In this document: in pieces, positions 22,694-22,816 of the stretch
How positions within the stretch are numbered: position 1 is the stretch's first letter
Layout: each line of letters starts with the position of its first letter
Source: Eledone cirrhosa
Lineage: Eukaryota
Reading direction: 5' to 3'
NCBI GenBank assembly: GCA_964016885.1
Contig: OZ024753.1
Coordinates: 40,238,001 to 40,302,000, forward strand
Length of the DNA: 64,000 nt
The notes under the pieces: model-generated
Seen by the model: only the letters and a program-made list of their open reading frames with translations
What the model was told of the DNA's origin: nothing
Databases searched by the model: none
Position numbers and translations under genes: made by a program

Positions 22694-22694
<1 letters not shown>

Positions 22695-22816
22695 CGTTAT
22701 TCCGGGTTGAATCGGATGTAACCACAGTAAGTAAGGTACTCAATACATTGCAGAGTATATGATTTCTAAAGAATGAAACAGTTCTAGTCCTGTAGAATCT
22801 CATCTATATTAAAACT
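22694..22816. mobile_element. Family D copy with non-overlapping inversion
   Basis: Reverse-complemented tail (22694-22760) joined to forward HHR 3' part ending attaaaac. Confidence 0.85.

Follow-up and report, generated by a model that had tools for sequence, protein, structure and literature searches.

Penelope-like elements (PLEs) of the Hydra clade are defined by a C-terminal GIY-YIG endonuclease, a CxCX5C linker, CxxC and CxH motifs and no CCHH motif, and are described with (TA)n targets, hammerheads and an inverted, 5'-truncated copy tailed at one end (Craig et al. 2021, PMC8557442). The origin of PLE tandem and inverted structures is called undefined in that 2021 clade survey. For Penelope, head-to-head inverted repeats with junction palindromes are described, hairpin junctions being the feature behind a self-priming proposal (Arkhipova et al. 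2013, PMC3846280). The purified PAc protein, of the Poseidon clade, nicks and extends both DNA strands and uses two start sites on its RNA, with the tail as the sequence between them; its start region contains a stem-loop (Frangieh et al. 2024, PMC11167929), and the available text of that paper does not apply the result to inverted copies. In L1, twin priming leaves an inverted upstream piece and a non-inverted 3' piece with a small gap and microhomology, the internal site lying wherever the RNA anneals to the overhang and the arms showing an internal deletion (Meyer et al. 2010, PMC2837659). Here, we report inverted PLE copies from Eledone cirrhosa, one of which (22695-22816) has this same L1 geometry, and in which the internal site is fixed.

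The window, meaning the whole stretch of DNA analyzed (64,000 nt; GCA_964016885.1, contig OZ024753.1, positions 40,238,001 to 40,302,000, forward strand), is AT rich and microsatellite dense, and masked self-comparison found several short-repeat families inside its (TA)n tracts. Inverted repeats were sought by masked searches, as a general inverted-repeat finder was swamped by (TA)n. Family D is numbered so that +1 directly follows the hammerhead GUA. Three landmarks recur: the short arm's outer end (p), the long arm's outer end (e) and the base at which the hairpin described further on begins (h).

Positions 22695-22816 hold a PLE fragment of two opposed arms with (TA)n on both sides (22678..22694 on the left and 22817..22838 on the right, read from the sequence). 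The long, or tail, arm (22695..22759, minus strand) is family D +25..+89, with its outer end at e and 64/65 identity to 14267-14331; it carries the conserved bulged hairpin that starts the tail (RCTC-stem-TT-GAGY-RC; 22736..22756, minus strand, from cross-family comparison), and its inner end lies 3 nt 5' of that hairpin. The short arm (22759..22816, 22817 at most, plus strand) is family D -35..+22/23, ends at p and is identical to the reference at 59/59 positions; it is a truncated hammerhead, with the GUA cut at 22794 and without the 5' strand of stem I and the core CUG. One nucleotide at the junction is common to both arms. An earlier note on this DNA had claimed that the arms do not overlap and together rebuild contiguous D sequence, and this was borne out with a single base missing (+25..+89 and -35..+23, leaving out +24; 2 to 3 nt at most are absent if the last T's are counted as TA tract). 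The note had called 58262-58372 similar: this second D copy (58260..58374) is indeed non-overlapping, and its contiguity did not hold, as the copy is diverged, lacks about 18 nt and has a (CA)n right flank. The exactness of the abutment at 22695 carries no weight by itself, since a single long arm stopping within 3 nt of p has a P of 0.38 to 0.82 for 20 to 24 arms; one such abutment is expected by chance, and its significance was dropped as an argument. Two opposed, non-overlapping fragments were found at 22695, at 58260 and at one locus outside the window (L011, below), and 16/18 window copies overlap instead.

Further two-armed D copies lie at 14021..14331 (intact hammerhead at 14198-14248, short arm reaching 33 nt further upstream than the long arm), 16556..16812 (short-arm overhang of 45 nt, a private variant common to both arms), 13250..13442 (near-perfect hairpin junction), 25830..26042 (a D2 copy, a perfect hairpin centered on a natural AGCT) and 11004..11169 (diverged, short-arm overhang of about 9 nt). 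Single-arm copies, all on the minus strand, are a tailless one ending at p by sequence comparison (9355..9497), one of 21 nt spanning the interval between p and the hammerhead cut (+1, ambiguous by 2 nt of TA; 38960..38980) and a D2 copy ending at e (13840..13997); the single arms that end at p are those at 9355 and 38960 in family D and one at 27541 in family G. A tail on one arm of an inverted, 5'-truncated copy was seen in 7/7 two-armed D copies. According to the earlier note, the short arms at 14021, 16812, 22815 and 38959 have the same end; this is exactly ctatattaaaac-TA at 14021, 16812 and 38960, and an extra T precedes the tract at 22815. Five more D short arms end at about +18 to +22 (9355, 11004, 13250, 26030 and 58260). 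The outer ends, which could have been random, are fixed: all nine D short arms end in the 6-nt window +18..+23 (P of about 1e-9 for a uniform 100-nt span).

The D motif is a type I hammerhead by its core (CUGANGA/GAAA/GUA) and stems I to III, and is predicted to cleave; 96.9% of 129 cells are paired, with a compensatory change in 2/13 pairs. Rfam matched no hammerhead family in 14160-14335 and nothing at the gathering score across the whole window, and the best 150 of 323 matches in 13200-28100 were only microsatellite or palindrome noise (E up to 5). Family D is without an open reading frame in the window, where its copies reach only about 120 nt upstream of the cut. Its hammerhead, its target and its inverted, tailed copies identify it as a PLE-type pLTR, and the tail hairpin that it has in common with the ORF-bearing Hydra elements suggests that it is Hydra type. 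The hammerheads of D (14198-14248) and G (39860 region) have U.U at the first stem II position, and loop III is CTAG in D and AATT/ATTT in G.

Clade membership was read from the window's protein-coding element, family A (643..3585, plus strand), a 5'-truncated Hydra-clade PLE with an endonuclease frame at 1295-2146, an inverted short arm at 635-1319 (677/677 identical), a hammerhead core at 3400-3454 and a hairpin at 3505-3531. Its frame of 283 residues has six longer homologues (E 3e-30 to 2e-23), which are RT-endonuclease proteins of 534 to 708 residues. The CxCX5C linker, CxxC and CxH are invariant in the alignment of A with these homologues; judged by these motifs, and with a C-terminal GIY-YIG endonuclease and no CCHH, element A is Hydra clade, matching the definition in PMC8557442. 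It is truncated before the reverse transcriptase (RT), and DKT was found in five and RWK/RWR in four of the six homologues. The (TA)n target, hammerhead core, inverted truncated copy and tail are all present. Pfam matched 0/4 window frames and gave a weak GIY-YIG match (E 0.027) in 1/4 homologues. Element A also has an in-frame Asn/Ser/Pro-rich insert between the RT thumb and the endonuclease linker (about 1480-1720), which resembles the N-rich inserts of rotifer Penelope elements (PMC3846280), and a Pro-rich insert occupies the corresponding position in homologue P0001.

A scan of genome contigs with the six homologues gave 13 loci (L001-L013; 14/45 pattern matches confirmed). These are Hydra-clade PLEs with (TA)n tracts on contigs of metagenome-assembled prokaryotic bins, and the contigs are probably host DNA contaminating those bins. 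They repeat the window architecture, with pairs of tailed and tailless arms in L004 (two), L008 and L011 (two) and same-end pairs at L004 2206/6000 and in L010 (tail on both arms); the remaining loci are cut by contig ends or are without resolved arms. A second non-overlapping inversion is that at L011 8709-8809, with a short arm running from p to the hammerhead cut (+1, with a 1-nt junction ambiguity) and a long arm that starts at h+3, about 10 nt 3' of p. The predicted hammerhead cut is where two short arms stop (38960-38980 and L011 8709-8759), a count within chance by rough estimate; their end points are suggestive of ribozyme-cleaved RNA being able to serve as a template.

Assembly or amplification artefacts (fold-back chimeras) could give copies of this shape, as palindromes between microsatellites are hard to assemble, the assembly was judged without reads and one copy has arms identical at 677/677 positions. 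Such an origin is hardly credible, given that most arm pairs differ by mutations, that their ends follow a biological spacing rule and that the architecture recurs in outside contigs and in the literature. The copies are truncated insertions of (TA)n-targeting PLEs, of the Hydra clade where this is testable.

The window holds 20 two-armed copies, 19 of which pair a tailed with a tailless arm. Among multi-copy window families, to which the count was confined because there it is not circular, one arm ends at e and the other at p in 14/15 two-armed copies (P 5e-4 against a coin toss). Family B has a two-armed copy with the hairpin at 3604..3794 and others at 27793-27982 and 60303-60504; the claim that B short arms end at ttccta held in 3/3 B copies, the boundary falling between ttcc and ta. 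In a B-related copy (7614..7859), both arms end at the p-equivalent site. Family C has two-armed copies at 4684..5008 and 13547-13704, in which no hairpin motif was found, and family G has two adjacent two-armed copies with two different internal ends (39694..40194) and a single-arm copy (27396-27541). The internal ends of G are 33 to 34 nt apart, and pairs of consecutive hairpin units occur in L002 and L003 as well. Single two-armed copies represent families J (55880..56300, short-arm overhang of 82 nt including a hammerhead core), I (59758..60118, short-arm overhang of 69 nt, tail of 104 nt), K (25691..25782, joined in an internal (TA)n, tail of 22 nt) and L (4330..4530). A tail-only copy starting at the hairpin (11247..11337, minus strand) is a relative of the single-arm element at 41992-42258. 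Tails measured 22 to 104 nt (n=11), compared with the 30 to 40 nt stated for Hydra-clade PLEs (PMC8557442); the range of about 45 to 85 nt from the RNA 3' end that had been proposed for p is therefore too narrow.

A single (TA)n tract that took two independent insertions, or a simple copy that was later inverted internally, could also present two opposed arms, for the tracts are crowded and later rearrangement was seen in the window (59615-59757 duplicates 60024 onward). All 20 two-armed window copies, however, join arms of the same family and subfamily, TA at the junction is confined to K and the B-related copy, and a later inversion would give neither overlapping arms nor a fixed breakpoint. 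This explanation is largely refuted, and we hold it to be very unlikely. The duplicated segment at 59615-59757 includes the interrupted TA tract and is joined to the neighboring repeat at a 5-nt microhomology; 59615-59709 was rejected as a single-arm copy, being part of this later duplication. The pair H (45966-46119 / 46690-46831) was rejected as not of the same architecture, with TA tracts inside and none at the outer ends, and the J-like single arms at 17081, 29240 and 38781, which have only the last ~25 nt in common with J, were excluded from the p copies. Single-copy islands with a tail hairpin or hammerhead core (3841-4046, 31822-31937, 41992-42258 and 59100-59259) are further PLE-type families.

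Comparison of tails uncovered, directly on the 3' side of p, a stem-loop of the form RCTC-[variable stem]-2-nt bulge-GAGY-RC. The search pattern, which demanded neither outer nor upper pairing, gave 52 matches. Twenty of them, one for each family or unit, entered the comparison; another 11 were extra copies or likely members, and the remaining 21 formed the control set. No hammerhead core lies upstream of 5 of the 20, which were chosen by context or resemblance. The bulged hairpin covaries in these 20 families or units (9 in the window and 11 outside). With families treated as unrelated in the statistics, the outer pair is Watson-Crick in 20/20 (8 A-U and 12 G-C) versus 7/21 in the unpicked motif matches, and the upper pairs form in 18, 18, 17 and 14 of 20, the stem sequence being free (shuffle P 0/20000 to 0.003). 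Folding of single strands gave z of -1.9 to +1.0 for eight pLTR ends, and the hairpin emerged from cross-family comparison instead. The motif was not found in C, J and K despite their fixed ends, and I has a degenerate form.

The distance from p to h has a range that includes 6 nt in 14/15 automatically measured arms from eight families, the exception being 22695-22816 (4 to 5 nt); six of 21 arms, whose mismatches prevented automatic measurement, have spacings of ~4 to 8 nt by eye, and four diverged D short arms, outside the spacing test, end 1 to 3 nt earlier. Six arms start inside the tail, from h-4 to h+12 (22695, 58260, L007 3886, L010 126, L011 1509 and L011 8759); all lie within 18 nt of p (P 0.004) and four within 10 nt (P 0.023). 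A seventh, 11247-11337, starts at about h by direct reading. Site complementarity was also considered: 6/10 family sites share at least 3 nt with (TA)n (null 0.10, P 2e-4). The idea that p is set by complementarity to the target alone was rejected, since family D shares just 1 nt, and the hairpin spacing is the tighter rule.

Arm geometry was tabulated for 18 two-armed copies with a readable junction, L and the B-related copy being left out; offsets were read by hand, and for G 39694, I and J a relative or a hammerhead-like core gave the spacer orientation. In 9/18 copies, two of them non-overlapping, the short arm extends more than 3 nt beyond the inner end of the long arm, so that the refuting condition of the earlier note, short arms always being subsets of long arms, does not hold; 4/18 are nested, and 5/18 are near-perfect hairpins (within 3 nt). 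Samples are small, and the tests, those above included, are post hoc. The predicted independence of inner ends was rejected: they are correlated in family D (Spearman 0.64, one-sided permutation P 0.07), and 5/18 copies are hairpins. Five D junctions have microhomologies of 2, 2, 1, 2 and 4 nt, summing to 11 against a null mean of 0.67 each (P 0.002). Private variants common to both arms were found at 47 columns in 912, in 9/12 copies tested, which implies that the arms come from one template or one locus or were homogenized; only two arm differences had both states in other copies. Arm asymmetry shows no increase with divergence between the arms (Spearman -0.28, P 0.31, n=15) and grows with arm length (Spearman 0.61, P 0.016). 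Across 12 copies of A, B, C, D and G, private substitutions were commoner on the short than on the long arm (19 versus 6, P 0.015, post hoc).

We think it fairly probable that both target strands prime, one of them at the end of the tail and the other at a site set by the hairpin, with microhomology joining the two cDNAs. The RT-endonuclease would cut both (TA)n strands, and both 3' ends would prime on element RNA, one strand starting at the tail end e and the other at the internal site p. The bulged stem-loop would set p about 6 nt to its 5' side; the spacing itself is read from sequence, and the hairpin may act as a protein-binding ruler. Where the enzyme from e stopped just 3' of p, non-overlapping arms would result, as at 22695; where it read through, displacing the other cDNA or working on a second RNA, the arms would overlap. 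The two antisense cDNAs would anneal head to head at 1 to 4 nt of inverted microhomology or at a palindrome and then be filled in, and the tail would be the distance from p to e. Strand displacement is known for R2.

Support for priming by both strands comes from the non-overlap at 22695 and, independently, at L011 8709-8809, from the 9/18 non-nested short arms and the single arms ending at p, from the 14/15 e/p pairing and the closeness to p of tail-starting arms, from the covariation of the hairpin, its 6-nt spacing and the microhomology of D junctions, from an asymmetry that does not rise with arm divergence and from the in vitro result with PAc (PMC11167929). PAc uses its start sites alike on both strands, so that this result alone does not explain the e/p pairing (PMC11167929). 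Against it weigh the chance-level abutment, the correlated inner ends, the 5/18 hairpins and the private variants common to both arms, which folding back of one product also predicts. The growth of asymmetry with arm length, expected if long palindromes get deleted, likewise counts against it, as do the tail-only copies, which could be whole-stem deletions between TA microhomologies, and the 16/18 overlapping copies, which need displacement or a second template; so do the fixed ends without a hairpin in C, J and K.

Self-priming gives many of the same shapes: the product primed at e would fold back, be copied to p and be resolved there by the endonuclease or a second target end, with overhangs and non-overlaps arising by lopsided deletion of the palindrome center, during or after insertion. 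Central deletion of palindromes is known. Self-priming is the published proposal and the only account of the inversions that we met in print (PMC3846280), the tail is ascribed to endonuclease resolution in PMC8557442, and the 5/18 hairpin junctions (one centered on a natural AGCT), the correlated inner ends, the variants common to both arms and the larger spacers with long arms all fit; e/p pairing and even tail-only copies are predicted too. Alone, however, the published model predicts neither overhanging nor non-overlapping arms (PMC3846280), and a second event is needed in 9/18 copies, including the least diverged (16556, with 0/73 differences and a 45-nt overhang), whereas hairpins of 59 to 67 bp survive at divergences of up to 7%. 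It leaves unexplained the single arms that end at p, the L011 arm at the ribozyme cut and the two-tailed copy in L010, and for PAc, p-type ends are starts of reverse transcription in vitro (PMC11167929). We regard self-priming as somewhat unlikely. The earlier statement that the inverted pLTR is "not a cDNA snap-back" was too strong, since self-priming with lopsided central deletion gives the same shapes; of the inference that the other (TA)n strand primes a second time at a defined site, the fixed p stands and the second strand is probable, and the independence of inner ends did not survive.

If both strands prime, they may do so on one RNA (twin priming), which is quite possible, or on two templates, either separate RNAs or the units of a tandem transcript, which is unlikely. 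Two templates would allow overlap without displacement, fit the same-end copies (7614-7859, with p at both ends, L004 2206/6000 and L010) and have a counterpart in a mechanism proposed for L1 (PMC2837659). With free choice of site, however, two templates would give e/p pairs in at most half of the copies, against the 14/15 observed, and the same private variants on both arms mean that the two RNAs would have to share one locus. These variants and the e/p pairing favor one RNA, which the three same-end copies misfit; these copies point to two templates at least sometimes. Strict twin priming of the L1 type cannot give the 16/18 overlapping copies without strand displacement or a second RNA. Compared with L1 twin priming, whose original model is reportedly that of Ostertag and Kazazian in 2001, most copies here (16/18) overlap, there is no poly(A), and target-site duplications are unreadable in (TA)n flanks.

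Each part by itself is already known, from the elements with their tails and inverted copies to internal start sites and twin priming; the joining of these parts, and the hairpin with its 6-nt rule, were not found in print. No paper was found that uses twin priming for PLE inversions or describes the hairpin, in a search that left most subscription papers and several older Penelope studies outside its scope, and the start-site hairpin, 6-nt spacing and non-overlapping arms were not found in the searched text and supplement of PMC8557442 ("hairpin" occurs 0 times in the supplement). The copies resemble Penelope inversions in their head-to-head repeats and junction palindromes (5/18 here), and they link the 2024 in vitro result, with two starts and extension of both strands, to PLE inversions. 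Priming by both strands would account, in a way open to test, for the inverted copies that typify Penelope-like retrotransposons, and the hairpin is a short covarying cis-element amenable to mutation, rescue and relocation in assays of a kind already in use. If its proposed role is right, it marks the point on the RNA at which a telomerase-related RT starts and offers a way to recognize non-autonomous Hydra-type elements without an ORF. More tentatively, priming by both strands may be the normal integration route of Hydra-clade PLEs, the hairpin placing one RT active site 6 nt upstream. A second RT would then start at the tail end of the same RNA, sometimes on hammerhead-cut RNA, and tail length, inverted pLTRs, single-arm copies and tail-only copies would follow from how far each enzyme travels.

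Other repeats in the window include an abundant repeat of ~180 bp, often in partial tandems, which is SINE-like and unclassified (sites include 5767-5960, 25073-25408, 37655-38077, 42812-43208 and 46924-47447). LINE-like 3' fragments, some adjoining (TA)n, lie at 23325-23689, 24602-24812, 39402-39654 and 59277-59619; they had no Pfam match, and from a translated frame we take them to be RTE. Tandem arrays with periods of 70, 25 and 88 bp occupy 19906-21564, 32230-33628 and 43427-43765, respectively.
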